Shown here: in pieces, positions 30,001-54,000 of the stretch
How positions within the stretch are numbered: position 1 is the first letter of the stretch
How the letters are laid out: every line of letters begins with the position of its first letter
NCBI GenBank assembly: GCA_038222225.1
Contig: JBBRHV010000006.1
Span: 1,626-65,625, forward strand
Origin: Candidatus Omnitrophota bacterium
GTDB lineage: Bacteria; Omnitrophota; Gorgyraeia; Zapsychrales; JANLHA01
Direction: 5' to 3'
DNA: 64,000 nt
The notes under the pieces: model-generated
Database searches by the model: none
Seen by the model: the letters and a program-made list of their open reading frames with translations, nothing else
What the model was told of the DNA's origin: nothing
Translations under genes and position numbers: made by a program

Positions 30001-33000
30001 AAAAAAGGAAGAACCGGATCCATTTGCGTCCGGCCAGTAGAATTGTTTATGTTGCGAAGTACATCTGGGATCAATTGAACATTCGTATGATCGTTGAAAA
30101 GGAAGGAGATCAACAACAGGTGGATGCCCGAAGTATCAACGGCCTTGCACGTCTGGCAATCTTTGACGGGGAAAAAATTTCAATTCGAACAGAGGGCTTG
30201 GCAGATAGGCAGATCAAAGGCAAAGCGGTTGAACTTTTTGCTAGGATTTTGAGAGACCCGGGGGTTCTTCAGCACAAAACGATTTGGGACATTTTTTATT
30301 TCTTTGATGAAGGGCGGGGGATAGATCAATTGTCCTTGCGTAAATATAAGCGTGCGGTTGATTTGATCAAGCTGGATGCGGCGGAGTCGGACCGACCTGA
30401 TAGGGCGCAAGTCAATTCCTCAGTTCTATTCGGAGCATCTCTGGCGCAGATCGATGCCTCTATCGTTGGTGATGTGGTCGGAATGATCATGTTTGCTTTG
30501 GGGTCGGCGGTTACCTGCATTGCGGCCCTGTTGATATGGCTGGTTAGAACACAGCGGTTCCGTATTCATGGGTTCTGGGTTAGGAGCTATACACCGGAGG
30601 AGATGAAAATTCGCCGGAGCGTTCATGCGCGGATGATCGATTTTTGCATCGGAAGCAAGCATTCTCAGAGAATGGCAGCTCAACGCATGGCGGGCCGTTT
30701 TACGCATTCGGCACGCAAATCATACAGATATCTTGTTGATATCTATGGAAGAGAAAAAAGCAAAACGGAATTTTTAAAATTTTTGAGAGAAACAGAAAAG
30801 GATCGACTGGTTACTTTTTTAGTTTTCTTAGAAAAGAAGAAGATGCGGTTGATCGTCGCTCCGCGATTTGTGGAAGGCGGAAAAGAATTCCGTCATCTGG
30901 ACATGCAGCATGGGTTCGCTTTGGAGGGCGTTCTAAAAAATTATGTTTACGGATATTTTGAAGGGATTGACCCAACGGACGATCAAGGAAAGATCGTGCT
31001 GATGTATTTGGCGGGGGAGGAGGGGTTCAAACAGCTACAAGAGTTGGCATTTTTATTTATTACAGGCGGAATATCCATAGTGAAGCCAGTCGAGCTCTTT
31101 ATGGATTCGGGAACGATAGGTGAGATCAAGACTGTGCGTGATCTTTTGCGTGTTGAGTATTTCTATCAGATAAAAAAGCAGAAGCAAAAAGAGGCGTTAG
31201 AAAAACGCATTGCCGAGGATAGGGCCGCGCAAGACGGGACCAACGCGGCGGTTTTAGAGAACGGCACAGCGGATCATGAACAGGACGGTGGCGAAACAAA
31301 TGCCGCGGTGCTGGATTCCGAAAACGAAAGCAAAGGGGAATTTTTGGCCGGGACCCAGCAGGGGATTCGGCTTGGGCTTTTGACACTTGAGGAGGCGCGT
31401 CTTTGGGAGAGGGCGGCAAAGATTGTTGATGCTCCTGTCGGCATGGAGATAGAATTCAGTCATCCGGAAATTGCGACATTAGGTGATGATGAGTATGATC
31501 TTCCCTATTATATTAGCGAACATTATTCGGATCCTCATTTGGAATTTAATCTTGAGCCATCTTGGAATCTTGGCATTCAAAGATATTTGGTAAGGCATAT
31601 TTACCGCAGTATGGGGTTGTCTGAGGATGATGTGATCTCGGTCCAGTTAAACTGCGGTATCCGCAAGAAAGATTATGAGGGGCTTTCTCAAGCTTCCCGC
31701 GGATTATTTTTATCTATGGCGCATTATTTAATGCTTGCGGTTACGATCGTTTATGCATCAAATCAAAGGATCTTATCAAAGAAATCAGAAAAGGTGGCCG
31801 AAAAACGGGATTGCGCTGAACCGCTTGATGGAGAACCCTACATTCGGATCGAATACGGTTTTCTTGATACGATCGATGAGGGGTGGCTGGTTCTCTGGAT
31901 CTTGCATCAGGTTATTTGGAAAACTGCAAGGTTCAGCGACGATCAAAAAATTTCCGGCAAACTCATTCGTGAAGAGGAGCAGTTGCTAATCAAGATCGGG
32001 CAGGACATGGTTATTCAATTGCATGAACGTCTTCCAGGTATTAGAGGATTAAGTGCGAATGATATATTTGACCTGTCGGATGCTCGGACGTGGTTTAGGT
32101 TGGTTCCGTGGCGCCAGGAAAATCCTGCTACGGTGAAGGCCATTGACAATCTTCTCCAGAAAACTGTGCTTCAAGTTTTGTCCACTTTAGGAGGGTCAAA
32201 CCATACGCCAGAGAAGGAAGTGCCGGTTTGGATTTTACCGGCTGGAAATCGGGAGACATTTTTAAGATGGTTTGGTAATCGGGAGCAGGCGATTGCTCAT
32301 ATTCCTGAGCCTACAGGTGGACAGGACGAGGTAAGGGATGGCGGAGTTAATTCTGCCGTTTTGGATCAGAGAAACATTGTTGGTGTTGAAGTGCACTGTC
32401 CGGCAGGATCAGGATATTGGCTGAGAGATATTCTTTATGAAGGGATCCCGGTTCAAGGCGGGCTGGTGATCCGGTATTATGATCAGTCGCGGTGGTCGTC
32501 AGGAATTGCAGGGATACGGACGGTTCGCAGTGATCATGGATTTTTTACAGAAGTGGATATGTTAAGAATATTAAATGGAGAGGTCCCGACAGACATTTTC
32601 TACGTGGGGGCTTTTCATTTGGGATGTGTTCGGCATGCGTTTGAAAGCGCGCTTCAAATTCAAAAGACAGGCCTGTGGAACGGGTCTCAAGCAAATCATC
32701 ATTTCATTTCAAACCGCATTGCCTGTGATTGTGATGATTTCGATATTCGTGTCAGTGATGCTTTGCCGAGGCTGAATCTGAGGACTGCAACGCCGTTTGC
32801 CTGGCGCAGAAATTGGAGTGTCAAAGCAGCGGTTATTCGGGGAGATGAGGTTGTAAGTAACACACGATTTATCGATCAGCTTCAAGCGAGGCTTTATTAT
32901 TGGAACGATGTGCCGGAATTTAAGGAATGGATAAGCCGTGGGATTCAGCAGACAAACGCAGCGGTTTTGAACCAGAGAATGTTTGAGATCGTGGATACAC

Positions 33001-36000
33001 ATATGATCAGGCGCAGAGTAGCGCAGAATCTTCAGGCATTGGAAGGCCTGCTGCGACAAAATTTTTCAGATCAAATGCTGGCAGAGGCTGCGCAATATCT
33101 TGCGCCGTTCACCACAGAACCGATCCTGTTCCATGAGATTTCAGATCAGGAGCGTGGGGAGCTGACGGTCGTTGATTTAGGCAACCGGCCGGCGGGATCG
33201 TTTAAGCCATGGATCATTTATGGTGTGATCAAGGCTATTTTGGAAGGGAAGACAACGATCGTGACCGCCAGCACAGGAAATCAGGCTATTGCTGTTCAAA
33301 AGATCATTGAGCAGATCAATGCAACGCCGTCGTTGATCGGTATCAACGCCCAAAGGCTTGGAATAAAAGTTGTTCTATTTGTGGGCCGTCATACTCCGCT
33401 GGAAAAAATCGACCGCATCAAGCACGGTGACGGACTTGTTGAGATTGTCGGAGATCCGAGGGAGAACGGCAGGTTGTTTGAGAACTATGAGGGGGCCTAT
33501 CGCGCCGCACGAGTCTTTGCAGCCCAAGAGCCTTCTAAGAATTATTTTGTTGAACATGCCGGGCGGGAGGCCATTGCCGGGTATATTGTTTTGGCAAACA
33601 GGGTCTTTGATCAGTGGCTCGCTCAGGGGCGAGATCTTCATCAAATGACAATACGGGTTGGGGTTGGCGCCGGAGGTTTGGCCAGCGGGTTTGCGATCGC
33701 GGCATTTTTAAGGGGAGCGGGCGTACGGATCATTGGGGTTCAGACCGATCGGACTCGTCACGCCTTTGATTCTCTATTTCAGGGAAGGATTCTCCCCTTT
33801 GTTTCAGGGGATACGAGTGGTGAATTTGATGAGGATGGGATCGACACAAAGACGCTTGAACCGATGGCGTTTTGGGCATTATCACATTTCTTGGATGGAT
33901 TGGTTCTCGTTGATCATCAGGAAGTTCCTTCGGCGATAGATTCTTATACACAACATGGAGTTGCGGCTGAAGGCGCGGCAACGCTGCCGTTCATTTCTTT
34001 AGAAAGATCAGCCCGTTTGTTTGATGATGAAGGGTCCCGTCAGCAGATTTTGATCGCCACCGGAAGAAACCGCAGAATACAACCGGGCTTGAACAGTGAT
34101 CAAGAGGCTAATGCCGCGGTACTTGGCGTCATGACCCCGCATGATTTTGTACATGATGGACGAATTTTGAATGAAGTTCATGCGTCAGGATCGGTTGTGG
34201 GGATCGTCCGCGAGATCAAGCGCGGCGCATCGCGTGTGGCAAAAACACCGGATCATGTCCGGCAGTTGACGCAGAGTGGGCTGATCGTTTTGGTAGAAGC
34301 TAAAGCTGGCGAACGCAGCGGGTACAGTGATGATCAGTACCGGCAGGCTGGCGCGTTCATTGTCCTTTCGGCTCGTGAGGTTTGGGAGCGGTCGGATATC
34401 ATCGTCAAGGTGAAAGAACCTCTGCCGCAAGAATATCAATATTTCCGCCGGGGATTGATCTTGTTCACCTATTTCCACTTAGCAAATCCGGAAAACAAAA
34501 ATTTGACAGAGGAGTTGTTGCGCACCGGGGTGACAGCTATTGCCTATGAATCTGTTGTGAAGGATGGACGGACAGTTCTGTTGGAGCCTATGTCGCATAT
34601 TGCCGGATGGTCTGCGGCGATTCTTGGTTTGTTGTATTCCCGCGCGTCGCCGGATTACAAGTTCATGATCGAGCCCGATGGCCGTATAAAAGCGGAGTTA
34701 GCCGCTGATATTCAGCAGTCCGCTGAACCGCTGGCCGGGCAGATGCAAAAAGAATTCGACACTTTGCGCGAGTCGCGGTTCTGCATGGACGAACCCGGAT
34801 TAAGGATTTTGATAGAAAAATTTGGAGGGCTTGGTAATGTCGTGGTTCTGGGTGGAGGCAATGTTGGACGTCAGGCGGCCTATATGGCGATGTTATTACA
34901 ACCACGTTCGGTCACGGTTTCCCAGTTGCCACACTTGCAGGAGGCGTTGCGTGAAGATCTCAGACGGTATCAGGGTCAAACGGTATTTAAGATCGTCACG
35001 CCTGATTCGGCTGAACTCATGGAGGCTTTAGAGCAGGCGGATGTCATTATTAGCGGGATCTATGCGCGCACTGCTGAGGGCGCTACCCGCGCATTGAAAG
35101 TTATTGATGAAGGCCTTCTTGAGAAGATCAGCCGCGGCAAGAAAAAGGTCATTATCGATGTCGCCATTGATCAAGGAGGGAATATTGAGCCGGCATTTGA
35201 CCGGCAGGAAACGGATCCGTTTACCTATCTCGACCGCCCGGCTCGACTGGACAAATTTGGTAATTTGCGCATGGATATTCCTAACATGCCGGATGCGTTT
35301 GGTCCGGTCGCTTCTCCCTATTTGTCACATGCCACCCAACCGTTTCTTCTTTCGCTGGTCCGCATGTCAAACGCGCAGGATATCCGCGAGAGGGATCCAG
35401 TGCTTTGGACCGGGGTTGCCGTAATCGATGGGCAGTTACTGGATAGGGCTGTGGCACAGTCCCATGGGTTGAAACACGGTGGTCAGGGGACAAACAGCGC
35501 CGTGGTGATGAGTGATTCCTTCGGCAAAGAGAGTGACGATCGTGTCAGATTAAAAGGTTGTGGGTCAAGGTGGGCGCAGGTTAAGGCTGTTATCGGCCGC
35601 TCGAGTATCCGGGAAGAAGATTCCATTGAAGTCACTCTTCCGGGCAAAGATTTCCGCATGGATCTTAAGGCTCTTGCGCTGACGGGGTTGAAGGATATTG
35701 GATTGGCCAATTACCGCAGGGTTATGGAGGCTATGGAGCTTAAACACATTTGGAAACAGGTCTTTCTATCGGACATTCTTAAAGCCCTGGCCAGAGTGAA
35801 GTTTGTTCTAATCGATGATCCCCAGCGGAATGGGTCAGCGTCCCTGATCGCTGATGGATGGAGACGATTTATTGCTGCGGCCGTTTCCGTTGAAGCCCCT
35901 GGCCGGATCTATTTGTCACGGTCTCTTGTTAAGGACATAAAGAACAGAAAAGAATTCGATGCCCTGATCGGATTTGTCTGGAGTGCGGGTTTTTGGATAG

Positions 36001-39000
36001 CAGCGCAAGACAAGGGTCTTCTGAACAATGAGGACCTGAGGCGCGCAGCCGTGGCCATGGAAGGTTTGCCTGGCATTATTCTGGATGAGGGGTCGTATAT
36101 GCAAAGCGATTTAAAGAAAGCAAGCGAGTTTGATTTTGTGATGGCTGACCGTATGGTTGAAGAATTCCGGCTGAGATTGGGGAATCCCGGGGTAACCCTG
36201 GTGGCGGAATCGTTAAATTGTGACGAGGAGGATCCAGACCATCAGACGGGGTTGATCATCGCTGCTGTGATGGACCATCCTGCCATTACCAGGGTGCTGG
36301 ATTATAATTCGATGAGTCCTTTTGTAAGACATGGTGGATTCTTGATCACCGACGGACAACAGAGAAATTCGGTGCCGTTATTTGACGGTGTGCAGGAGAT
36401 TGTGTTGGTCGGCGGGAATTTAAGCGCGTGTCTTAAGACGCAGCTTTTTATATGGTTATTCGCCTTGCGGCATGAGTTTGAACAGGGGGTTGTATCGGGT
36501 AACTGGGTCTTTCATATTCCTTCGGGCGCAGTGTTTGATGTTAACGAACAGATGACGGGTAATGAATTTTTAAGGAGAACGGATGGCGTGCGGAAAACAT
36601 TTTTAAAAGAGTTTTCCATTTTAAACGAAGGGTTTGCGGCAGATCGTTTCGGGTTGATTCGCGTGTATAGACAAGAAAAGTTTTCAGTGACTTTAAGGCT
36701 GTGGAAAAATTTTGAAGATTTTATGAGGCGATTGGATTCTGTGAAGAGGATGGCCCGCTTGGGTACGTCTAACTCCTCCGTATTGAAGCCGATGGCCGTT
36801 GGGATTGGCGTGCATGACGGAAGCCACATGAGTGAGGCGGCGGCGAAACGTACATGGGCGGCGCTTGAAAACGGAGAGCGCGTGAAGTTTGCCGATATAA
36901 GGGATCATGTTTTACCGGGGATGATTGATCCGATTGCTCAAAGCCTTTTGCGGGATGAAAGGGTTTGGATCTTTGTTCCGGATGTTATGGCGGGAGAGCG
37001 CGGTCCGCCGGTGCTGTGGTTTGATTCTTCTGAATATTTTGTTGTTTCAGCTATTTTAAATCAGCAAATCATTATTCCTGTCGGGCTTTTGGACCATCCT
37101 TCCCTGATCGAAATTTTGCGTTTTGAAATGGTGAATGTTATTTCTGGTGAAGAAGACGTCGCGCAGGGAGCTCTTTTGGCACAAAGTGTTTTGCGGTCTG
37201 TTCTCATGGTGATCAATAAGGGAAAAGAAGTAAAAAATAAGTCGAAAAAAGACCATGCTGCTGAAGAGATCAATTCTGCCGTTTTGAGCGGAAAGGACAA
37301 AGAATACCGTGTGATTTTTGAAGGCAACAAAACAACGATCCGTGGTGAAGAGGGATATTGGGTCCATGTTCAAGTTTTGATTGATATGGGGGAGATTCCC
37401 GCCGAAGGCAAGACGATTCGCAACGGGGACCGCTGGCAGCAGGAAACGTCCGAAGAAGTCTTTGGACAGGGAAAAATTATTGCGGTTCAGGGTGATTATT
37501 TAAAGGCCGAATTTGGGACCAAAGGAATGCGGCAGTTCAATTGGAGGGTGGCGGATATTGAGATTTTTGTTTCATTGAAGAGCCTTTTGTTTAAAAAAAT
37601 CCGCGACTCCGAGGAGGAAAAAAATAGGGCTTTTGCCGAAATTCAGAGGGGCGAGCTAGCCGGGTTGATAGACTCGGCGCTGCGTTGCGGGTATCGATTG
37701 CAGGATTTAGCCCGGGAAGCGGTTATATCCCCCAGTTATATAACAGGTATCGTGAAGGGGAGGATGCAGCCATCGACAGACGTTATCCGTAGGCTTGTTG
37801 CTGCAACAAAGAAGGCCATGGCCCATCCAAAAATGATTGGGCGAAAAAAGGGCGGGATGTTGATTAGCGCAGAAGAACGCCAAAGGATAGTAGCTCGTCT
37901 GCAAGCGCTTATTCAAAGAGGGTTCTTGCCTGCCCGGATCGCGGAAGAAGCGAAAATTTCTTTAGCACTTCTTTCACGCGTGCTTAATAACGGATGGGGG
38001 TTGGGTACCCATGCTCATGAAAAAGTGATGAGTGCTGTTGAGAAGATGGAGAAACAAAAACCGAATCTTGATCAGATAAGGGATGTCTTAGTCAAGATTT
38101 TAAACAGCGGTTATTCATTTGTTGAAGTGGGAGAAGTGGTCGGAGTGAGTGACATAAAACTGAGGCGCATCTACAAAGGAGAAACCGGTTTTGCTGTTGA
38201 CGAAAAAGAACTGTTAAATAAACTTCGGATTTTGAGCGGGCAGCCACATCCGAATGCTGTTTTAGGGAAAGCATTGTACCGGTTAGCCGTCCTTTTGGGT
38301 TCGCAAAAACGTGTGGCACAAATCTGCGCAGAGAACACGTTTGTCATCAGCAAACTCATCCGCGGTTCAGGCGGGGTTAAAGCCGATAAACGGAAAAATT
38401 TATACGCCTGCATTGTGCGCGCGTTACCAAAGATCGCAACGTGTTTGACTCTGGAATTGTCCGGTAAAGGGCTTGGTTCTTTAGCTGGGTCCATGGCAGA
38501 GGTCTTGCGCAACAGATCAGGCGCCGTGCGCTTGTTTACCGATGTGGACTATTTGACCTTTAACGCAGCCCGGATCCACGAGTTCCTGGCGGTTGAGAAT
38601 GTTCTACTTGAGCTGACGCAAAACATTTTCCTCAAGAAAGCGCGCGAATGGATCGATGAACAAGGTGTACATGTCATTTATCATGTTGTCCCTCAAGATC
38701 AGGCTGACTTAAATGGAAGAAACAAACCGTTAACGTTATCGAAGGTCCAGGGTGAACGTGATTGGATTGGCGCGGAGTTTTTTGACGAGCGTTCAGGACA
38801 TGCCGTCAATTCCTCTGTTTTGAATGCCGTTCACTCAGATATGTGGGTCAGGGTGAAGAATACAGTCCCGGCTCTGGAGCAGATGAAGCAGATGTTTGAT
38901 GCAGATCAAGATTTGCTCACAGAAGAAGGAGTGAGAGTGGAGAGAGACGTCCGCGACACGTTGATGGCGTTGCGCTCTTCTTTGAGAAACGAATGGGCTT

Positions 39001-42000
39001 TGGCGTTCGCGGAAGATCTTGTTGCCCTCATGCCGGATCCTGAACACTTTGATGAAACGGGTGAGTGGATGACGTGGTTTAAGCCTCATGCATTTAATGG
39101 GAAATTCACCCTTGAAGCATGGGGTCTCGGGCAGGAGTTCATCGATCGGTTGAACAAGGTGCGCGGGGCAGACACGAGCAAAATCAACAGCGTCGGGGTT
39201 AATTCGTCTATTTTTGGTCATTTATTCGGGGCAAAGAAAGAAGCGGCAGACATTGATTCTACGGAGGTCAGACAGGAGATAACAGAGTGTGATTTTGATC
39301 AGGCCGTGCGCGGAGTTCGACGCCTGGTTAATGAAACGCCGACAAATGAAATTGCAAAAGTTCTTTACGGCCTGCTTCAGTATGAGGAGGACTATTTGTA
39401 TTATCAGATTGTTCGTTATGAGGCTGCCAAGAGAATAGCCAAGGCATCGGTGGAGGAATATGAAGATCTGAAACAGTTGATCAGCACATTGCGGATGCTC
39501 GGGAAGATGATTGAAGATCGCCAAAAATTGTTTGAGGAAACAGGGGAAACGAACGTTGACTTTTATTTATTAGCCCTTCGACAGTCTCGACAGAAGTTAG
39601 CAAGATTATTCCGTTTTCATATTCGGGGGTATGAGAATCTTGACCGGGTCGTTCAACGGTTGGACAGCGACACGGTGGAGTATTTATTTTCGTTCTTCAG
39701 CAGGGCATCAGTTCAAGAATTCACCAGCTTAGATGAGCTCATGCAGATCATGACATTTGTCCGGCGGCGCACTTCTTTGGTGGATGAAGATCTGTTGGCG
39801 CGCGCCAAAGAAAGCCTTGAACGGATCATGGTGGAATGGGTTTGTGAAGTCGGCGGAGAAAAGGATCCTGATCTAAGGAGCCAAGAAGTCAGGAATATTC
39901 TAGAATACATTACACAGCATGATCGGACATTCCGTCAGAAATTGAAAGAAGGCATCAAGAGGGCCATTGGTTTCTTAGCCCGTCAAATCAGAAAGAGTCA
40001 AGATGACGCAAGGGAGGCGCAAAACTTGGCAGATAAGAAGGCCGTTGAAGGACGGCAAAACACACTGATTGATTTAAGCGTGAGTTATTCGGCGCTGATG
40101 ACAGCAGTGGATGATGAGTCAGGAGACGGAAATCTTGATGGAAACAATTTATGGGAAAGCCAAGACAGCCAACAGACAGATAAAAAATCAAACAATGATT
40201 TGGGTGCAAATGCTTCTGTATTGATGGGAAGAGAAAATTACAGGCATCTTAAAAAAAGATTTGATGATACAAACGCGGCGCTATTGATTGGAAGAAGTGA
40301 CAGGTCACAGACAAACAAGGAAATAAGGGCGAAGAGGCTCATTCAGGGGTCGATTTTAAATGCGTTTCTCTTTTGTCTTCCTGCTTTGGTCATTGCGGTG
40401 ATCGCTGTTGTGACTTGGGGGCCAAGCTGGAAGATATTTGTGGCGGTCTGGGTTATTCTGGCGTTAACACGGTTTGCAATGTCCATGCGCCATATTCCCG
40501 ATATTTGGAGAACATTGCAGGGCTTAGGTACGCCAACGAAGGGCGGCATCATTGAATTGGCTAAGGCCACTAAGACCAAGATGGAAAGGAAAGCTGTGGC
40601 GCGTGAGCAAGCCCGCAAGAAAGCGATTCATCAGGCCAAGGCTGCTATGGGCAGGGTTTCTCCCAAGAGTTATGCCATACAAGAGGAGTATAGCACCGAG
40701 GTGGGCCGAAAGATCCCGGCGGAACTTAGAAACGACGAAGAAATTGTTGAGCAATATGAAAAATTGACAGCCCGTGCGGAAGAATTTTTTGCGCGCAAAG
40801 TACGTTCACAAAAACCGAAAGAGACTGCGCCGCAGCATATTCCTGAGGTGGCACCAATACCGATAGAGCCTGTCCAAAGACAGGAAGCGCCTGAGGCGCG
40901 CGAAATGGCCAGAAAACGGTTCATTCGTCGACAGCTGGCTGAGGCGCGCCGTTATATTGAAAAGCTGGACAGCCGCGGGTTTATGAGCGCGCATGAGTTT
41001 TTGAACGCCGCCGAAACGTTTAAACCGGAGTGCGTTAAAACATATCCGGATGATGCTCAGGTGAAGGATTTTCTGACGTGGTTTGATTGTGCAGTTCAGG
41101 CTGTGGCACAACAGGTCGCGGATAATGTTCGGCGCATGGAATTTGAGGAGCGCAAAAAGGAACTGCTGGCATCATGGCGAATGATGGTTGAGAAATTGGA
41201 AAGAGCCCGGCAACGGCTGGATCAGGCTATGGCGGCAAGGATTTCCAAAGACCGCGCTTCGTTGGCAGAGTTGCAGAGAAGGATGGATCAACAGGTCGCG
41301 GATAATGTTCGGCGTATGGAATTTGAGGAGTGCAAAAAGGAACTGCTGGCATCATGGCGAATGATGGCTGAGAGATTGGAAAGAGTTCGGCAGCGGCTGG
41401 ATCAGGCTATGGCGGCAAGGATTTCCAAAGACCGCTCTGCGTTAAGTGAGTTGCAGGTAAGGATGGATCATCTGGCAGCGACCATAGAACAGCTTCGTCA
41501 GGCAAAAGATGTTTTGCGCGCGTTGACTTTGCCATCCGCGACCGCCGGTGAGGATGATTTGCGATCCGCGATTTTACAGGTGCTTCCCGTTGAAGTCAGA
41601 GAAGACCCGCGCTTGGCGCTTTTTATCGAACAGGCCAGGTTGCGGTTGTATGAACACGCTGTGACGCGGGTTTTGGATATTTTGTCTCAGTCTTCAGTTG
41701 ACCCCAGAACTTTTGATGACAGCGAGGCCTTCCGCCAGGCATGGATTGCGAAAGTGCCGGTATGGATGCAGGAGGATCAACGTATCATTGCAGCCCTTGA
41801 AGAGCGTATTGATCAAGGCCTTTTGGTAATAACCGAACAGGAGAAAAAGTCTGCTCAAGTTAAAAGGGAACAGGCATTAGAAAAAAGAGCGACTATTGGG
41901 GAACTTTATACCGCCTTAGGAAAAAATGATTTTGGAACGGCACTGACGAAAGCCTTTAAGTTGCGCACATTGGTTGCTGATATGCCGGTAGAGGATTGGT

Positions 42001-45000
42001 TGGAATTTCTTGAGATGTTTGTTGTGCAGGCAGCTCAGAGAATCGAACAATTACGTCGGGAAAAAAGGCATAAAGAGGCCGAACATGCCATCCAAGGAAT
42101 GCGTAGGCTTTTGGACAAGACCCCGCTGGCGGAAACTTTCAAGCAAATGCTAGGAGACATTGACCGCCGTTTGCAAGAAACACAACATAGAACGCCGGTT
42201 TCCGAGCGTATCCAAGAAGGAGCAAATGGCAATGAAACAAATTCTGCTATCGCGCATGGGACTGACAATGCAGATAATACGGGCAATGTACCGGATGAGG
42301 TAGGAGCAAGGCTTAGTGCTGAGGTCTGGCTGGATGTGGCGCATTTGGATGCGGAGGCGGTCAATGGGGTTTTGAGATTTAAGGGGAACGATGGCTCTGG
42401 ATTGACGTCTTTGACTTTGACAGACCTTCCGGTGAGTGCCGCTCTGGATCAATTATGGTTTTTGTGGTTTAAATGGAAGAATGACAGAGAAGCATTTTAT
42501 CGTGATTGGCTTTCTCATCTCCGAAACATTCCTTTATCGTTTTCTCACTTAAAACAAGAAGACAATTTAAAACAAGCTGTGCTCAGTAAAGGGCGCATGG
42601 CTTTTGCGATTCATGTGGCTGCCAATATGCGTTCTGACCGTTGTTTGTACGAACGATTAGAGGCAGCCGCGAGATCAGGAGCGCATACGGTGCTTGTCGT
42701 TTCCGGCGGAGGCCTTTATCAGAAAATTTTACGAAGAGTACCGTTTGGACGGTATGTGTTCCGTGATGGATCTTTGAAATTGATTCACATGTGGGCCAGT
42801 TTGTCGCGTGAGGGAAAGGTCCCTCCGGGTGTGAGGATCGCCGTTGCGCTTAATTCGAATTATATCGGCTCGAAGGCAAAGCGCGAAGCGGTTCGTTTGG
42901 TAAAGAAAGTGAAGTTGGCTCAAGAATTGGGCATTCCGCTTTCTCAGATCGAAATTCATACCATGGCTCCTTTGACCGGGTTTGAGTGGGTTGACGGTAT
43001 CGGGCTTTGGAACTTGCGCCATGTGGATGCGATCGCGTTTTTCAGGGACATCTTATTACCAGTTTTAGCAAAAAATGGAATTGGTACTAAAGAGTTAACC
43101 GTTCGTTTTGGTGTGGCCCATGTGATGAATGCAACAAACTATGCATTTTGGGTGTATTTGGCTGGCCGATCCGTCGATGAAAAGAGTGCGGGCCGGGCGT
43201 ATGACACTTGGCGAAAGCATTCACGTGCTGATCAACTGGCAAAAGCATGGTGGAGAGTTCAGTATGAAGTCAATAAGCGGATTCAGGAGCAGGCGTCTTT
43301 TGGTCACGTCGCATTGATCTTTCAGCCGGCGGCAAAGAAGGCGGGGGATGCGGTTATCCGTTGCGCGTCTTTTGTGCAAAGTGTGAATAGCGCGGTTTTA
43401 AAGACAGCAAGACAAAACGGGCTTATCAGCGATTCAATCATTATTCAGGAATTAGGTTTTATGCGCAGGATGTTTACGGCCTATGAGGGAATATTAAGTG
43501 AACAAGGCCGCAGAGCCATACAGAATATCAGTGAATTCATGAGTAGTCTTCAAAGAGGCTCGGCGGGGGATGATGTTCGCCGGAAAGCCGTCGAGTGGAT
43601 CTATAAAATGCCGGAACCGTTGCAGTTGAATATGGAAGACGAATGGCTGACGTGGTTTGATCACAAGAAAATCCAGTTGTTCCCTTATGGTTTAGGGGGC
43701 GGGTGCACGGAGCCTTGCTTGCATTGTTTTTGGGGGAATCCTGTTCCAGTGGCGAATCTAAATCCTCTTCCTGCCGTATTTCTCGGCGCGAAAAACAGCA
43801 AACGAGAAGTTCTTACGTGCGGACATTTTGATGATCTGGAATGGTATGACCCCTTATTCGGAATTGGGCTAGACAGCATTGTGAAGTATTATTTGAATTC
43901 AAATCCACGGCAAAGGTTAAGTCTTTTGACTCGCGGTTGGGAAAAAGAACATGCAAGAAAACAACAGGTTGTTGAGAACATTGTTCGTATTGTATCCGGC
44001 GCTGATTATAACTTTGAATTTGGAGTTTCCTTTAATCTTGCTCAGTCTGGAAAATATGATCTCGCTAAGGCGATTCAAAGTGGAAGGCTGGAGTCTGTTT
44101 TAGAACTGTATGCTCAGCGTCATCAACACATTTTAAGGACGCTTCGAGGCTTGTCGAAGATCCGATACGTGGTTCGTCCGCTTCTGCAGGAGCGGGAGTT
44201 GGATCATCCCACAGAGAAATTGCTTGGCATGGTCTTGCGCAAAGCTGAGGTTGCGGCTGCGGACGTGAGAAGGGCGGAGGCGACCGTCATTGGAAGCAAT
44301 AGAAACAGCCGAATCCCCTGGGGCCCAGGAACGCTCACGATCGAATGTGATCAATGCATCAATGAGACCGGTTCCGGCGGTGAGTTTATTCGAAGCATTG
44401 ACTCGGCGATTCGCGGAGAAGATTTTGTGCGAAGTTCCTACGGGCACATATATAGAGAAGGCATGCCGTGCGCTCAAATACACGGTGCTACAAATGAGAT
44501 CGTTGTTGTTCTTCCCAGCGGAAAGCGGGTGATGCGAGGACCGATAAGCGATTTTCCGATGAGGACGGTAAGGCAAAAGGGCGCTGCTCAAGGTGGCAAC
44601 TCTGCAATTTTAGCTGAGAAATTCAGTGATTGCGTTGATATCGATTTTGAGAGGATGTTACAAGACCGGAAAAAGAAGTTCTCCTCCAGTTGGCCGCATC
44701 TTGATTTTACAAATCGCATTTTGATTCCGTTTCCTCTGCCAATGTTGCGGGTGTACGGAAAAGAACCATTTCATGACGAAGATATTCAGCGCGTTATTTA
44801 TGAGCTTTTAACCAATGCTCACGATGAGGCGCCGGCCGGGCTGATCAGAGTGAATTTTGAATTGGGAAGCATTGATTCGCAGAACGGCCTAAGTCTTTTT
44901 ACGATCCAGATCGAAAATGAGCGCACCGGAGAGATCCCGTTTGATCAGATGTTTCGGTTCCTGTTGGGACAGGCAATCACCGGGAATCTGTGGCGTAATA

Positions 45001-48000
45001 AGACGACGGATCAGCCGGTCATTGAACGGATCCAGAACCGTTGGGAAGTTGGGGAATTGGAAAACATGCCGGACATTTACGAGCGCGTACCTGACCGTCT
45101 TCAGGCCCTTGCGCTGGCCCACCGCTATGTTCGTCAATATGGGCTTAAGTCGATCCTCTTTCTTGAAGGAGTCGGTCGAAGAAAAAGTAGAGAGAGAAAC
45201 GAGATCGGCGGAGTGGGCGTGGGACTTTATAACAGCCGGTATACCATCAATCGATTAGGGGGAAAGATTGATCTTGATGATACGCGCTCGGGCCGGACCA
45301 CGTTCGCGATCGGATTTTTTGTCCGGGAATTTTCATTGAGGCAAAAAGGATCGGATGCGTTTGTTAGCGGTGCTAACTCTGCGGTTTTTAGGGGATCGAA
45401 GGATTCTTCTCTTGATTCTCTGCTTGAGAGCATCATGGCGTCCCACAAAGAGAGCGGGGTGCGATCAACGCCTTGGGCTGCAAGGATGGACAAGCCGCTT
45501 GACCGCACAGGATTCAACGGGCCGCACCTTTTCGCGAATATTGAATTAACGAACGAGCAGGTTCGGTTGTTCCTTATCCTTAAAGAGCATAAACAGGCGC
45601 TCCTCAATTTACTTGGTGAAAGCTTCAGAGCTGTATTTGGGAAAGCGGCAGGGATCCTTCTTAATCAAAATGTTTCTGGATTTAAGGCAACACAGGTCGA
45701 TGAACAGTATTTAACTTGTACCGTTGGTGATCTTTTTATTCCAGCCATCGAAAATGCTTTTGATGCCTATATGAAAAAGAGCGGCCAATCATCCGATGTT
45801 CCGTTGGTTCTTGAATTTTATATTTCCTTTGATGGCCGGGTGATGATTGCGGAGATGCGCACCAATGGTCTGTCGTATGATTCCGGTGAGACCGCGACCT
45901 CCGAAAAGAAAAAGGACTCGGATCAATTGGGTGGAAAAGGGCGCGGACTGAAAGCCATTGATGAATTTGCTGCATGCATCGGCGGGATCCAGTGGGATAT
46001 CCGAAACCGTAAAGATCTTTTTCCTGAGGATGCGGAAGGATCTGTTTTTTATGTATCTCTTCAACGGGATAAGCTTTCTCAAATCGTCAGTCATGCGGCG
46101 AAGTTTTTTGGTCTGGGTTCGTGCGCGACATGCCCAGAGGATAGCGTCAGAAGAAATGCCGACGCAACGAGCAAGAATAGTGGAGCGAATTCTGCAGTCT
46201 TGAACGGAAACACGGATGATTCGACGGGAAGTGATTCTCAAAAGAAGCGCTTGGAAGATTTCTTGAGCATGGCTAAAAATTCACAGTTGGAGGCGTTTTG
46301 GTTAATTCATGAATTAAAATTGGATCAAATTGAGCGGGCCGTTTCCGTTGGCAGCGGCGTGCTTGCGTTGGCGCCGTTTGAAATGATTTTAATCGAAAGC
46401 GGTGTTGTGGTTACGATTTTTGATCCCGATCCAAACGTTCAGGAAAATTGGGCGCAGTATAAAGCGCGAAGGCTTAATGGCCATTGTGTTGACCTTGTAC
46501 CGTTATCCAGATCAAAATTTGGAAGTTCAGCACAGCCGATCCAGGGTGCGCAGATGTATATTACGATGAATGTTTTTGGTCGTTCGGGCATTCCTATGAC
46601 AGAACGTGCACAAATGTTAGGCCTCTTAGCGAAAAGTTTTAAAAACGGGGACTTTCTTTTGAATGGATGGTGCAGTCCGCTGGCGTTTGAATTGATTGCA
46701 AATTCGCCGGCACCCCAAGAGGATGTCAGGGTCGAGACCGCGCTCAATCACGAGCATATGCTGGCCTTGGTGAATCTTTTGGAATCGCGGCATATGATGT
46801 TGGAGCCTGTCCGTTTCGGCAGGAAGGAGGACGTTCTTCATCAGAGGGACTTTTATCGAATTATTCCGCTCGGATCACCGGTGATGCCGGTAGCTGATAA
46901 AAATCGAAAAAAGAAGGGTGAGCGCCAGCCTGGAAAGAGGATGTCCGAAGATAAAGGCGCCAATGCTGCTGTTTCGCAAAATAATGAAGGCGTTCCGGCG
47001 GATGATCGAGGGATCGATTGGAAAGGATTAAGGGCAGGGCTTGAGCAGGGAAGTTCCTTGTCGTTCGGCAAGGTCAAGCAGCTGATCCGGGCAGGGAACA
47101 AGAAGGTGTTTGGTCTGCTGCAATCTGTCGTCGCCGGCCACAGCAAACAAGAGGCTGCGGTTTGGCATTTTATTTTGACGGTGGATCTTGATCGGGAATA
47201 TTCAGCCCATTTGGGTTCGAACATGAGAAATTTGAAAATGGCTGTTATCCGGGCCGCGCAAAAGGATCTTGAAAAAGGCGGTGTGCCCGGGTCCGATCTT
47301 CTGGAGCAGTCTGTGTCCTATGGTGATGAAGATTCTTTGAGCGCTCTTCAAAGGGTGGCCTTCGGTGTCAGCAAAGGGAAATTCCTTGCGATCAGAGTAA
47401 TCTTTGAGGCGCAAAAGGAAAAGAGTCCGGCGTCTCCGCAAATACGGGCTGTTTGCCGGGGATTTTTGAACACGATCGCCTATAAATTAGGCGAAGGGAT
47501 CGAGAGGGATCCAGAAACGGGGTTACTCATACTTGGAGCGCTTGTTTTTGAGATGCCTTGTGAACCGATAGGGGAAGGGGCCCGCGGGATATTAAAAAAT
47601 ATCGTCGATGGGAAGTGCCGGTTGACTAAAGAGAAAAGGATTGAGGCGTTGAATTCTTTGGTGGAATGCGTTCGTGACGGAGGCTCTGTCGATTTGCTGG
47701 AGTGGATTTTGAAGGGCGTGGCCGCGCTTGACGGCAAAGGCTTCCCGCGTCTCAATAGCTGGAGCGTTCAAGAGATGCTGGGTTCGCTTTTCCACAATGT
47801 TTCGGTGGCGCCAGTATTGCGCTTGTATGCTTATGGACTGATGCCATTGCCGGAAAACGAGACCGAAGCGCTTGTATTAGCTAAACGTGTGTTACATGAA
47901 AAGGCCCATTTGACCTCCTTGGAACTATTTTCAGACAGCGGTGTTTGGCACAATGAAGAGCTTAAGGTTTATATCTTGGCCGTGTATTTGATTATGGTTG

Positions 48001-51000
48001 CGAAAATAAAAAGAAGCAGTTCCTTTTTTTCACGATGCCAGAATCAGGAAGATGACATCGACAGCATTATGACCGGCACGATGCTGAAAGAAGATTACGG
48101 CGGGATTGGTAACAGCAAGCTGCAGTTCGGGCGCAAAGATCTTATCGAGGACCGCAATGAACCGAAGATGATGTTCGGTACCTGCGCCCACGAGTGGACG
48201 CATATTTTTAACCGTTGGATTATTGAAATTTATAGGATCGAAGAAGAGGATGGACAGGATGCGATCGATGAATTTTTGGCGGATCTGGGTGCGGAAATGT
48301 TTTTTGGAGAAATGGGCTGGCAGCAGGCAAAAGAGGTGCGCCGGAATAAATTTGTATTTCAGCACGCGAAAGTATTTGGGCGGAGTCCCCGGGCAGATCA
48401 GATCAGCCATGAGCAGCATGAGGCGGCCCGTGTCGCCTATAAGGAGATGCAGCGGTTTTTGGAAGCCAGGGAAAGGGAGACCGGTGAACGCGTTCCTCTT
48501 TCTGGAGAGATGCTGTTTTATCTTTGGGGTGCTTTGGGAGAGAGGAAAGCAGAGGAGATATCGTTTGTCATGTTGCAGGATTTGCTGCAGGTCCGGTATG
48601 GTTATGCGGAGTTTGTTCATCGGCGGAAAAACAAGTTCCAGTCCCGTCCCCTCGCGGATAGCGAGATGGAAGAAAAAGGAGTAACGCAACGTGAACCTGA
48701 TAAGGACATTGTTTATGTGATCAGATGTTGGCATGTAGAGGAAGAGGAGCGCGCCGAGCTGTTTGAAGGACCAAATGTTTTACGAATTGCTGTTTCATCC
48801 GGCACAGAACCGCAGGCCAGCGGATCCCAGGATATTCAGGTCATACAAGAGGCAACAAACCCGAAGGATGGAGAAGCGCCATCTTCTAACGCCAACTCTG
48901 CGGTTTTAAACTATTGCGTCGCGTGTTTTGCCGGCGTTGTCGCGTCTCCCTGGGTCGCATTGCCGGTTGACGTTGTCGCAAGCATTGCCATGATGTGGGG
49001 AATCATTGTTATGTCTGAGGGGATCGAGATGCGGCACTCTTTAATTTTTAGGGCTCTCACCTGGATCAAAGACCGTTATGAATCACGCAAGGTCACGATC
49101 GAATTTTTGAAAATGGTCTTGAGGTTTGCAAACATGGTTGGTTTGTATGCGCTTTTATCTTTTTCGTGGGGAACGCTCATTTTGCAATGGATCTCGTTAT
49201 TAAGCATAAAGCTGGATTGGCCTGAGTGGATGACTTTTATAGCAGCGCTCCTACCGGCAGCAGCCTTCATCAGCGGAGTAAGTATGGTGGTGGTCCCGGA
49301 GATCATCCGGGTGCATAAGGAATGGAAGAGATATCTTAAGAATATCCGGGGAGATCGTGCTCCGGAATGGATGGCCCAAAAATACAGCCATATCTCCGCG
49401 GAAGAATTGCTCCACCGTTCGGTGAGGATGAAGCGTATTGGGCGGGTCTTGTTAGCTGCTGTTTGGGGAATAGGTATCATTCTTTTGGCGATGTCGTTCC
49501 AGCATGCTCCGCACATGAAAGTTCTTAAAGGCATAAGCATTGTTGTTCTGTTTTTTTATTATCAGACATTGGTTGCAGCCCGGGAAATGAAGAAAATGGC
49601 AGAAGAATTGGAGCAGACAAAAATTCTAAGGGAGGCTTCTTTAAAAGCCAACCGATCCAGGGCAGGGCCGCCGGTCAGTTCTTATTCGGATTTTAAAGGT
49701 GGTATCAATTCAGCAGTATTGAGTGAACAGAGCGAACCGGATCATACGTCTCCCAATAAAGCAATTTTTGATTTTGTTCGACAGAGTCTCGGGGATGGAA
49801 CAACCCAAACAGTGAATGAGGTGGCGGAAGCGCAAAGACCCGTGATTCTGCAGGGTGGCAGAGATCAGGCGCTTAGAGCAGGTAATGATTCTTTGCCTGA
49901 TGATTTAAGAAAAGTCAATGCCGGTTATCAAGCGGACATTTATTTCTCGCCGAGTCGACGGATGTTTTATAAGGTCAGGAAATCCACGCTGTCTGCCTAC
50001 TATAGGTCATTACGGAATCATCTTCTTGATCGCGGGCTGTTCAGAACATCGGCGTATCTGTGGATTATGGACACGCTGCGGAAAAATTATCAAAGGTCCG
50101 CTGGAATGAAGACCGTGGAGGGTCAGCCTTTTTACGATATTCTTTCGCAGGCCGGTAAGGCCGGACGGCCGAACACCGGTGTTCTTGTCCGCATAACGAA
50201 GATGCTTAAGGCCTTCAGAGCGGTTGTTAGTTTTTGTATTGTTATGGCTGGCAGTATGTTTATTTTTTCAAAGACGGTCAGGGCTGAGAAGGCGCTTTTC
50301 CATGACAATTATTTCAAGGGTTATGAGGACATGCTTAAGTTTGGGTTTGTGCAGCAAGGATATGTGGCAGATTTTCGAGTGATCAGTGTCCCTGCGGAGG
50401 ATCGGAATGGAATTTTTAAATGGAGATGGTTGGAGCGGAACCGAAAGGTCATTGAACAGTCGGAAGTGGTTGAACTGATACAGGTGTTGCGGGAAATGAC
50501 GGATGCGCAGTTTTATGTAGCGGTCGAGCGTTACATTGAGATCCAGCATGCGTTTTGGCGCTGGGGATTTTTTAATCATGCTTTGGGATTTTTGGGAAAT
50601 TATGGATATGTCAAAGATAATGGTCAGACCAACGGACCACTGGTCCTTTTTGACCCGGGAGAGATCGTTAGTAATGGTGATAACGCCGAAGATAAAATTT
50701 TGGAGGTAGTCGAGCGCAAGAAGGAAGGGGCGTATAAGGACCTCAACGCATTGAATCCAGTTTGGGGGCAGTATTACAAGGTTAGAGTTGAGGCTGAACT
50801 AAACCGCTCCAAATTTTACGAGCTTTGGTGCAGTGAAGCCGGGTGCCGGATAGAGACAATCCAAAATTATTCCACTAACGCCGCGGTCGGTTCCAAATCC
50901 CGTTTCGTTAGCCGAAAAAGGGAAAGAGAAGATCGTCCCGCGATGGCCTTGCCGAGTTGGGAAGAGTTCAAGGACCCTCGACGGTCATGGCTGGTAAAAT

Positions 51001-54000
51001 TATATATTCTTTTGGTGCGTCAGCCGGTAAGAGAAGAATATAAACTTTTAGCCGAAATATGGAGTGTTGCGGGCTGGCTTGGGGAGCATGGCGTCAATGA
51101 GAGCAATATGCATGAGCGGTGGGTTCAGGAGCTTTTGGAGCTGCGTACGACGATTAATGCTTTTACCCGGTATCCGGTCCGGTGGTTCGGCCTCTTTGGT
51201 GCAGTACTGATGTACTGGCCTGCGGTGTTCATACATTTTGTTTATAATGCCCGATGGTTGGTGCGCAGGGTTATCCGGGAGGTTTTGTCAGGGGTGAAGG
51301 GTTCGACAGCAACTGTTTTTGTCGGCGAAGCTGCCATGGTCAGAGAAAAGAAAACATCCTCGGCATATCAAGTCATTGTTGAAGAGCTTTGGAATTTGAG
51401 GAGTTTTTATCCTGGGAAGATCTATCTGCGATCAAAGACTATCCTTTGGCTGATGGTGTTCGCTGCCCGATGGATTCTCCGGAAACAGTTATCCACCAGC
51501 TCGGTCGTGGTGCTCGAAAAGAGCAATAACCAGGGTGAAATAGGAAGTGGGCATTTACGGGTTTTCCGGGCATTTGTTTTTAGTTTTGGTTTGAAGTTGG
51601 AATTATTCAGGGCAGATGAGTTTTTGCTGATATCGACAGAAGAGCAGTTTCCAGCCCAATTCGACAAGTTGAAAAATTTATATGCGATGATGAAGCCTTC
51701 CCAGGCTTTTCCCTTAATGGGGGGATGGGCGGCCTCACCGGATCTCGCTATGATCATAGTTTCTTATATCATGAAATATCGTCCAAAAGTTGTTCTTGAT
51801 TTGGGCAGCGGAACTTCGACAATCATCATTGCTCAGGCTTTGAAAAATTTATCCTGCAGCCAGTCCCGCCGCACTTCTGCGGAACGGGCAGGATTCCGCC
51901 TAACGGGTGAAAAGATTTTGGGGGCTCCACAGACAGGGCATGTGTGGTCCATGGAGCAGGACGCAGCCTATGCAGGAAAGACGCGGCAAAATTTGGATGC
52001 CCATGGGCTTGGTACTTACGCGACGGTTATTCATGCTCCGATCAGAGAATATTCGAATCACAACGGCACGGGAAGATGGTATGACGTTTCCCGGCTAGAG
52101 GGTATCGGCCCGATTGATTTGGTGATTGTTGATGGGCCGCGTGGCTCAGGTCAAAGAGCTGGGGCCATGCCGATTCTTTTTGATCATTTAAGCGATGAGG
52201 TTGCGGTGATCATTGACGACACGAGCCGGGTGGCAGAACAGGAAATGGTTGAGAAATGGCTGAGAGATTTTGAAGGGTTCCGCGCGCAGGAAATTGACAC
52301 GGAAAAGGGGACGATTATTTTAAGAAAAACAAAAGCCGCCATGGATGGCGAAGAGGCAGAGCCTATTTCCTTAGAGTCTGAAATCAATGCCGCGGTGCTT
52401 GGAAATGAATCTTCGCCTAAAGAGGATGGGACAAATCACCAGGAAAAATGGTTTTTCCGAGATGCAAAATCCGGTGCGGTCGAAGTCCATGAAATTGCCG
52501 ATGATAATGGGGAAACAATTTGGCAAGTTCTCCAGGAACAGGAAGCGAGAGAGCAACCGGTTTCTGACAATAGCGGGAATAAGATCCAGGGAGCGACAAG
52601 CGCTGCGGTGCTGGGCAGTGGAAAAGTTGGCCGCAATGATCCTTGTCCCTGCGGCAGCGGGAAAAAATACAAGAAGTGTTGTGGGGGGGCTTCCGCTACT
52701 CAACCTTTCGCAGCGCCGGCATTGAACACAAGAAAGAGCGTCGGACGATCGTTCAGGTTTATTGCCATGGCTGATGGTCAGGTTCAAGATCTTTCTCCGC
52801 CGGCAGCGTGGGAATCAGGTTCCGTGGCCGTTTCTCCCCAGCCTGTCCATGGGCGCGCTGCTTTAACCGGGACGGTCATTCCGGCCAGACTTGAGCATGC
52901 TGAGCGCATACTCGCGCTATCCAAGAGGGTCTCCTCATCTACCCCTGTTTCGATGAATGTGATCATCAGATCCATACAGTCCATAGCTGAAGATTTCAAT
53001 GGTGAGCCGAGAATTTTTGTTTACATAGAGAAGAACGTGGTCTTAGGGTATACGTTCGCTTCCATTTATCCTTCAAGGAAACTGGTTTATATGGTTCAAA
53101 CATCCGTTGATCAACAGCATGAAGGCCGCGGGATCGGACGTTATCTGCATCAGTATTTGTTTGATGTTGTGCGAAGCCAGGGACACAAAAAAATCTTTTC
53201 AATATCGAATCCTCGTGCGGCGAGCATCCTTTGTAAGGATGGTTTTCAGGTTTTGACAGACGCCCGAAAACTTCCAGTGATCAGCATTGATCTGCGCGAT
53301 GATGAAAATGTCGTATCTTTGAATGCGACGTTGGAGGATGTTCTCTGCGTGGGGATTATGCGGGTTCTTCTGCCGACCAATCTGGTTGCCATTGATCAGG
53401 CGTTAATTCATGGGGATATGCCCGGGGTTCAGCATCTTGTCCGGACGAATTTTATTTTTGCCTGGCTGCGAGCCAGCGGCATTCTTCCTTCGGATGAATT
53501 CCGACGGAAGATCATTGCGGATTTTAACAGACGAGGGGCTGGTAGGGCTATGCAGCAGAATGAAGAGACGCTGGTTGTGGCCTGTGCGGTAGGGACTTCA
53601 CAACATCCGTCCTCGAGAGATGAAAAATTATGGCAAAGGGAGGGACGTACATTGCCGGCGTCTTTTGATCCGTTAGAAGATTTTGCGCAGCATTGTGTGG
53701 ATGTTGTTTTCCACCCCAAAGAATATGAACAGAGGTATCATTCGGCTGATGAAAAAGATCGACCTCGTTTATTGGCGCAGTATGCAGTTGTGAGGGATGT
53801 TCTTCAGCAGTCCCTTCCTGGCGCAAGAGATAGAGGACAGTCTTCTGGCGGAAGGGGACAGTCCCCCCGCGGGGACAATCCCCAATCGACCAACGCCGCG
53901 GTGCAGGTTTCTGATTCCATTCCGACGCCTTTGACTTCTGAATTTATTCGAACGTTGTCCGTTGGAAAGAGAAGTGTAACGTCATCCGAAAAACGCATCC

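Follow-up and report, generated by a model that had tools for sequence, protein, structure and literature searches.

Cysteine-cluster modules in a giant reading frame

Does a giant bacterial protein carry radical S-adenosylmethionine (SAM) modules that escape curated profiles, and how did several related copies come to lie in one chain? The question is raised by a stretch of 64,000 nucleotides from a Candidatus Omnitrophota bacterium (contig JBBRHV010000006.1 of assembly GCA_038222225.1, positions 1,626 to 65,625), here called the window, in which a single giant open reading frame (ORF) holds three related modules. The original prediction had described a radical-SAM-like module in two full copies (modules 9 and 42, hereafter m9 and m42) and one truncated copy (m37). 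On the evidence below, m42 and m9 are likely to be paralogues that parted long ago within an unannotated and highly divergent radical SAM family. The features concerned, in window coordinates, are:

78..56891, + strand: giant ORF of 18,937 amino acids (aa) without an internal stop, holding all three modules (ORF list)
43401..44612, + strand: m42, full copy (aa 14442-14845, 404 aa)
43386..43400, + strand: upstream junction peptide of m42, NSAVL
43428..43667, + strand: N-terminal helical bundle of m42, module residues 10-89 (motifs MF.AY..LS..G, MPEP and W..WFD; helices in the model; invariant L32, G36, W85 and F86)
43704..43727, + strand: CTEPCLHC of m42 (aa 14543-14550), the CX3CX2C triad C102/C106/C109, proposed [4Fe-4S] ligands
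43683..44300, + strand: beta/alpha core of m42, module residues 95-300
43842-43862, 43929-43940 and 44028-44039, + strand: core motifs W148-x-D150-P-L-F-G, TRGW and SFNL of m42
44301..44582, + strand: C-terminal alpha/beta subdomain of m42, module residues 301-394, with the G.G.(D/E)F..R(L/I) helix and no conserved Cys
44598..44612, + strand: closing junction peptide of m42, NSAIL, in a low-confidence tail (model residues 395-404)
11223..12392, + strand: m9, second full copy (aa 3716-4105, 390 aa)
11517-11540, 11658-11678 and 11748-11759, + strand: CAWPCLHC (aa 3814-3821), WRDLFFG and TRGW of m9
11838-11849 and 12210-12227, + strand: SFHL and GRGRDF of m9
11208-11222 and 12378-12392, + strand: junction peptides of m9, both NSAVL
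38823..39215, + strand: m37, short copy of 131 aa (aa 12916-13046), with neither the Cys triad nor any of the beta/alpha core
38808-38822 and 39201-39215, + strand: junction peptides of m37, NSSVL and NSSIF

The coordinates and motif strings of the original prediction were accurate, and all of them lie in frame with the ORF at 78-56891. When the m42 region was compared with the whole ORF by BLASTP, m9 was recovered at 25% identity over 414 aa (E 3e-30; aa 3707-4098) and m37 at 26% identity over 110 aa (E 1e-8; aa 12909-13018). The m42-m9 alignment is collinear, starting 4 residues ahead of the upstream junction and ending shortly before the downstream one, and the blocks W.WFD, W[RY]D..FG[VI]G, TRGW[DE] and ALMPDP/KMPEP, which had been noted as common to m9 and m42, were all found. 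Within the 18,937-aa ORF, the pattern C...C..C occurs exactly twice, once each in m9 and m42. Shuffled sequences gave a mean of 0.0065 occurrences, and two or more in none of 2000 shuffles; two occurrences, both in paralogues, are thus beyond chance. These results indicate that m9 and m42 are collinear paralogues sharing a CxxxCxxC motif, as had been proposed.

A family with an invariant cysteine triad

Relatives were sought by running a profile of m42 and m9 with HMMER against the full set of 1.84 billion cluster representatives. At E<=1e-3, 48 proteins were retrieved, 23 of them at E<=1e-30. Part of the family consists of stand-alone proteins of 348-446 residues, and other members, of 1,340 to 7,640 aa, are pieces of huge multi-module proteins that run off their contigs. 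Of the giant fragments with a source name, three are labelled Candidatus Omnitrophota and one lies in a bin labelled Dehalococcoidales. Members with a named source are mainly from Omnitrophota, most of them forming cassettes of giant multi-enzyme proteins; the remaining members are stand-alone proteins of ~400 aa on metagenome contigs without a source name. In a word-indexed search of 5.8 billion proteins, m42 alone had no match and the family alignment described next (A3) found only P0032; a scan of genome contigs with a further alignment, A2, found no relative.

Thirty family sequences, 20-29% identical to m42, were aligned (A3). Nine positions are invariant in all 30, namely L32, G36, W85, F86, C102, C106, C109, D150 and F329. 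The motifs N-terminal to the triad are MFTAY..LS..G, LMPDP and NW..WFD, leading into G-C-x-x-P-C-x-x-C; after the triad follow, in order, DPLPV, W.DPFFG, TRGW..D..Q, LSFHL (with a conserved S210 at beta4), YA.RYAN.I.TLG and G.G.DF..RL. The triad residues are the only conserved Cys and there is no fourth, a pattern that corresponds to the three protein ligands of radical SAM enzymes. At 20-29% identity, the invariance of the triad and D150 in 30 of 30 members points to purifying selection on an active site. Conservation reaches 80% or more of the members at 41 positions; m9 keeps 39 of these and m42 keeps 36, the five departures of m42 including H212N; both therefore look like intact members rather than decaying ones.

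Two non-triad columns of A3 hold Cys in at least eight of the 30 members: position 214 (9/30) and the C-terminal motif G-D-x-x-C-L (13/30), and neither Cys is present in m9 or m42. The latter lies in the C-terminal subdomain, in the column of m42 residue 343. It was considered as a fourth Cys acting as hydrogen-atom donor and, given this distribution, was dropped as a family feature.

A separate observation concerns locus L089 (Ga0265297_10000350), where a giant ORF runs through the entire 12.2-kb locus and holds a full family module (CLAPCQFC). In the same frame, CRRGCRHC and CDLDCPKC occur ~1,100 and 1,750 residues upstream of this module, and these two additional CxxxCxxC motifs may mark further radical SAM modules in one giant protein.

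Links to the radical SAM superfamily

PF04055, the Pfam radical SAM family, matched two of the 30 A3 members at E values of at least 0.014 and was the sole Pfam family to match more than one of them. The sub-threshold NCBIfam matches of A3 members (YfkAB in two members, MiaB-like-B at E 3e-4, GggB and MiaB/RimO) are likewise enriched in radical SAM models. A stronger connection came from the weakest matches of the representative search, P0041, P0042 and P0044-P0047, which form a sister clade (alignment A6). In a profile-profile comparison (hhalign), A6 matched the family profile with a probability of 99.8% (E 1.8e-27) over 268 columns, including the N-terminal helices. The sister clade is more canonical in sequence, having a hydrophobic beta1, the cysteine motif G-C-x-N-Q-C-x-F-C, LTNGW and ISFNL. 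In each of its six members PF04055 was the only or the top Pfam match (E 3.2e-5 to 0.013, profile start 1-3), with scores that were all under the 29.5-bit gathering score. Because A6 ties to A3 on one side and to PF04055 in six of six members on the other, it provides a transitive link between the m9/m42 family and the radical SAM superfamily. The CX3CX2C spacing of the three Cys, which would be the cluster ligands, is invariant in the 30 family members and in the sister clade. In one sister-clade protein, P0046, the module is combined with a kinase-like region.

Predicted fold

An AlphaFold2 model was built with A3 as the alignment and m42 as the target. Its mean predicted local distance difference test (pLDDT) score is 88 and its predicted template modelling (pTM) score 0.88. 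The elements of the m42 model, in module residues, are:

11-27, 34-51 and 57-68: three-helix bundle, with a further short helix at 81-85
99-101: strand b1, followed by the Cys triad at 102, 106 and 109 and by helix a1 at 123-132
~143-148: strand b2, ending in W148-x-D150; helix a2 at 157-167
173-177: strand b3 (LLTRGW); helix a3 at 185-198
205-211: strand b4 (SFNL); helices a4 at 221-247
253-258: strand b5; helix a5 at 265-281
302-381: C-terminal alpha/beta part (strands 302-316, helix 324-337, strands 357-381)

In this predicted structure the triad occupies the loop that follows beta1, within a partial or complete (beta/alpha) barrel like that of triosephosphate isomerase (TIM), a placement on the cluster loop that follows from the order of secondary-structure elements and not from residue superposition. 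The structural neighbours of the model are mostly radical SAM enzymes. At both ends of m42, the NSAIL junction included, pLDDT falls below 50, which places the junction in a predicted disordered linker.

Proposed chemistry

By the predicted fold, m42 and m9 each start with a bundle of three helices, continue with a partial beta/alpha barrel and end in a Cys-poor C-terminal alpha/beta subdomain; G-C-x-x-P-C-x-x-C is carried by the beta1-alpha1 loop of the barrel. We infer that the invariant triad ligates a [4Fe-4S] cluster and that the fourth iron of this cluster would bind SAM. Reduction would then split SAM to give a 5'-deoxyadenosyl radical; the substrate from which this radical would abstract hydrogen would sit between the barrel and the N- and C-terminal parts peculiar to the family. 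At the end of beta2, the invariant Asp of W-x-D-P-F-F-G would stand in place of the GGE motif, T-R-G-W at beta3 may be the counterpart of TNG, and S-F-H/N-L at beta4 may be that of the ribose motif. The short copy m37, in which the barrel appears to have been deleted internally, cannot carry out such chemistry; it would be a relic or, alternatively, a helical domain that has been kept.

The short copy and the origin of the copies

The family hidden Markov model (HMM) matched m37 over profile positions 16-99 (E 4.5e-17), directly followed by a weak match to positions 318-342 (conditional E 0.004). The two segments of m37 are:

38823..39089, + strand: retained N-terminal helical bundle, module residues 1-89, with the helix pattern of m42 (AlphaFold2 pLDDT 86-98)
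39123..39167, + strand: GLGQEFIDRLNKVRG, probable remnant of the C-terminal G.G.DF..RL helix (HMM match; F106; model helix 102-115, pLDDT below 55)

In a MAFFT alignment, F106 of m37 sits in the column of the invariant F329. The jump in the HMM match from positions 16-99 to 318-342, together with F106, gives m37 the look of an internal deletion: ~220 residues, comprising the triad and the barrel, seem to have been lost, and the bundle is joined to a remnant of the C-terminal helix. The description of two full copies and one short copy thus stands, and m37 looks internally deleted rather than C-terminally truncated. No match to m37 was found in a scan of metagenome contigs. The same scan with the N-terminal alignment returned two loci, both full-length modules in giant ORFs, and no m37-like short form.

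The original prediction had further proposed that modules duplicate and decay within the chain. An origin of all three copies by duplication inside the chain, with m37 now decaying, would account for three members of a rare family occurring within one ORF, each bounded by the chain's own junction peptide, and the ORF does contain other internal paralogue pairs, such as aa 7548-7849 and 18609-18893 (45-49% identity, with ~11,000 residues between them). However, in a neighbour-joining tree of 379 columns, which is rough since the sequences are very divergent and m42 is a long branch, m9 and m42 were sisters in only 4 of 100 bootstraps; m9 was nearest to P0003, P0005 and P0012, and m42 to P0022. 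The bundle of m37 is as close to P0029 (38% identity) as to m9 (36%), and it is 27% identical to m42. The divergence of the copies is thereby older than their split from other lineages. Since m9 and m42 are each nearer to homologues of other organisms than to each other, they would be old paralogues or products of separate recruitment. As for decay, the core of m37 is gone and its tail is poorly predicted, but the confidently predicted bundle keeps all family-conserved residues, both the invariant L32, G36, W85 and F86 and, at 90% or more, M24, P71 and W82, which argues against free decay; the two full copies, as described above, retain most conserved positions. Paralogy of the modules and loss of the core in m37 were thus upheld, whereas we regard recent duplication within the chain as unlikely. 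Judged from sequence, the three copies appear to be ancient paralogues or separately recruited cassettes. The modules that lie beside m9 differ from those beside m42.

Weighing the radical SAM assignment

A number of results weigh against a radical SAM identity. In Pfam, m42 matched no family even at E<=10, m9 matched only Ank_4 at noise level and m37 matched nothing; in NCBIfam, m42 had no match. Neither m9 nor m42 thus reached the PF04055 gathering score or an NCBIfam radical SAM model. Sequence-profile searches of the PDB with A2 and A3 yielded chance matches only, and a Foldseek search of the PDB with the m42 model gave nothing at E<=1e-3 (best E 0.07); the top rows, themselves non-significant, do include MtaB, DesII and OxsB, a weak pointer towards radical SAM enzymes. 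The family has no literal GGE or GxIxGxxE, and ahead of Cys3 an aromatic residue frequently gives way to Q, H, P or I. The neighbourhoods of five stand-alone homologues contained housekeeping genes only and no common partner, and hence gave no pointer to a substrate; no precursor-peptide gene was recognised near them. The window also provides a canonical radical SAM gene for comparison, adjoining the giant ORF:

60410-61468, - strand: HydE, [FeFe]-hydrogenase maturase (from the names of 60-67% identical homologues)

When A3 was compared by hhalign with an alignment of HydE, the stretch of beta1 and the Cys motif alone was aligned, without significance (probability 0.5%, E 0.12), and the same stretch alone, again not significant, was aligned with A6. 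In favour of the assignment, D150 of m42 follows Cys3 (C109) by 41 aa, and in the window HydE the distance from C56 to E96, in the HydE alignment the invariant Glu of the GGE-type motif, is 40 aa. The radical-SAM-like identity is accordingly supported by the predicted fold and by transitive homology through the sister clade, and by no curated profile at threshold.

The shortfall in curated profiles, the missing GGE and GxIxGxxE and the frequently non-aromatic residue ahead of Cys3 would also suit a TIM-barrel-like enzyme or binding domain in which the Cys triad and a fourth ligand, such as D150 or H212, form a structural or redox Fe-S site or a zinc site and perform no SAM radical chemistry; an invariant Asp and a near-invariant His are available for this role. 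However, the CX3CX2C spacing is exact, invariant and located after beta1, and the sister clade has Phe ahead of Cys3, the TNG-like LTNGW and PF04055 matches throughout. Position 212 is occupied by Asn in m42 and in further members, so that H212 is not a universal ligand. A zinc finger or ribbon finds no counterpart here, as only three Cys are conserved and they lie inside a ~200-residue beta/alpha core. The presence of just three conserved ligands and the way in which the structural neighbours rank also speak against such a site, which is, in our estimate, quite unlikely.

That the modules are catalytically dead scaffolds, serving as structural spacers of the giant protein, is hardly credible. 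In its favour, neither substrate nor partner can be inferred, the core has been lost from m37 and the chain evidently tolerates this, and m42 deviates at five conserved positions including H212N. Against it, the triad and D150 are invariant across highly divergent members, and the same domain occurs in stand-alone genes, where a spacer role would make no sense.

Junction peptides and possible processing

Dissimilar modules follow one another along the giant ORF, each parted from the next by a short N-[S/A]-[A/S]-[V/I]-L junction peptide. The pattern N[SAG][AS][VI][LFIV] occurs 44 times against 0.8 expected, and m9, m37 and m42 are each flanked by a junction peptide on both sides. The extended pattern is [G/E/Q]-[T/A/V/I]-N-[S/A]-[A/S]-[V/I]-L, with two sub-classes, G-T-N-A-A-V-L and x-[V/A/I]-N-S-A-V-L, in which the -1 and +1 residues co-vary. 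The codons of the junctions vary synonymously, indicating that selection acts on the peptide and not on the DNA; conservation as DNA, as for a cloning site or mobile element, was ruled out by these synonymous codons (Ser AGC versus TCN).

Other giant fragments frame the same module with other recurring peptides: P0014 has R-T-S-P-[VM] seven times and P0021 has [SA]-S-S-P-x 11 times; RRRSPSG recurs in P0010, AAPAGR in P0005 and P0009, and SSSP in P0004. The same module framed by a different recurring peptide in each lineage suggests a portable cassette with lineage-specific junctions. This junction-peptide architecture of the host protein is a more unusual feature than the radical SAM module.

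The first module of the giant ORF (78-740, aa 1-221) is a rhomboid intramembrane protease (Pfam E 2e-23) with the motifs HxxxxHxxxN ('HTNPLHLTFN'), a 'GLSA' serine and an 'AHLGG' histidine. Rhomboid proteases favour a small residue at P1 and hydrophobic residues at P4 and P2'. The junctions have a small residue before [V/I]-L and T, V, A or I three positions upstream of that small residue, a pattern that would fit this rule, and it is conceivable from these motifs that the giant chain is processed by its own rhomboid. Chymotrypsin-type serine-protease-like motifs (GDSGSP, GMSGSPV and SGYSGGPV) were noticed, by eye only, in P0004, P0007 and P0014. A literature search on bacterial polyproteins found nothing relevant.

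A more far-reaching idea, which we consider a long shot, is that this radical SAM clade serves the giant proteins of Omnitrophota exclusively, that these are polyproteins cut at lineage-specific junctions (NSAVL in the window; RTSP, SSSP, AAPAGR or RRRSPSG elsewhere), that the cassette acts on the polyprotein or its products, for example by peptide epimerisation or cross-linking in the manner of EpeE/YydG, and that m37 is a helical docking domain and not a relic.

The remainder of the giant ORF and its surroundings

In-frame Pfam domains along the giant ORF include the N-terminal Rhomboid, APH, Metallophos, TPR, Pkinase and HATPase_c, as well as several GNAT, an Rce1-like protease, methyltransferases, PALP, AlaDH, HTH and SEC-C. 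By tiled self-comparison, the ORF is nearly without internal repeats beyond a few paralogues. TPR tandem repeats lie at aa 1992-2158, and a 60-aa tandem of 83% identity lies at aa 13678-13801. Approximately 25 distinct hydrophobic segments have the length of transmembrane helices (e.g., at aa 4175-4358, 9590-9941, 16275-16500 and 18341-18643), and several junctions directly precede such a segment; the giant protein may thus be membrane-anchored at many points.

The genes flanking the giant ORF are chromosomal housekeeping genes. The MnmA encoded in the window is 81% identical to a protein of a Candidatus Omnitrophota metagenome-assembled genome, the next match being at most 52% identical. The presence of HydE beside the giant ORF suggests an anaerobic host, and its position next to the giant gene in an Omnitrophota host is compatible with oxygen-sensitive Fe-S chemistry. 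An antisense ORF at 44133-44591 had no Pfam match, and Rfam gave no match over 38000-46000 of the window.

Significance

The analysis assigns a fold and a probable chemistry to ~800 residues of dark sequence in a giant Omnitrophota protein. The family of ~48 clusters is unseen by curated profiles and is consequently missed by current annotation. As a unit of ~400 aa that occurs both as a stand-alone gene and in giant proteins of various lineages, with its own junction in each, it is an example of a portable cassette, which helps to set module boundaries and bears on the question of whether these giants are processed polyproteins. In terms of enzymology, the family would extend an already very large superfamily only incrementally, except if the giant protein itself turned out to be the substrate.

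Comparison with known systems

Related Omnitrophota giant genes have been described by West-Roberts et al. (bioRxiv 10.1101/2023.11.21.568195), and a class of Omnitrophota giant proteins termed 'multi-enzyme metabolic cluster' has been reported with canonical PF04055 in 90 long proteins (bioRxiv 10.64898/2026.06.07.730766). A text search of these two preprints brought up neither junction or linker peptides nor the m9/m42 family. The host ORF resembles the 'multi-enzyme metabolic cluster' proteins in having many different Pfam domains and no dominant repeat; unlike the PF04055 domains of that preprint, the window module escapes PF04055 detection.

Among known enzymes, the best structural neighbour of the m9/m42 family is the peptide epimerase EpeE/YydG (PDB 8ai1), and spore photoproduct lyase (PDB 4fhc) is also among the closest systems. 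Compared with both, m9 and m42 have no extra Cys and no sequence-level similarity. EpeE has a SPASM/twitch auxiliary cluster, whereas m9 and m42 lack a C-terminal Cys-rich domain of this type, the extra Cys columns of the family being missing in both. In contrast to the MiaB/RimO/MtaB methylthiotransferases, they have no N-terminal UPF0004 second-cluster domain, no TRAM domain and no further conserved Cys. The N-terminal Rossmann-like B12 domain of cobalamin-dependent class B enzymes is absent. The N-terminal domain is without strands and has no PqqD match in Pfam, so it is not the PqqD-like winged helix with beta-sheet of the recognition element (RRE) of ribosomally synthesized and post-translationally modified peptides.

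With the radical SAM superfamily at large (PF04055), the family shares the invariant CX3CX2C after beta1 and the beta/alpha core; the acidic residue ~41 aa past Cys3 at the end of beta2, and TxGW and SxHL at the ends of beta3 and beta4, would be further points in common. It differs in that W-x-D-P-F-F-G would take the place of GGE, Pro stands ahead of Cys2, and the N-terminal three-helix bundle and C-terminal alpha/beta subdomain are special to the m9/m42 family. It is a new, unannotated family of a known superfamily rather than a new kind of system.

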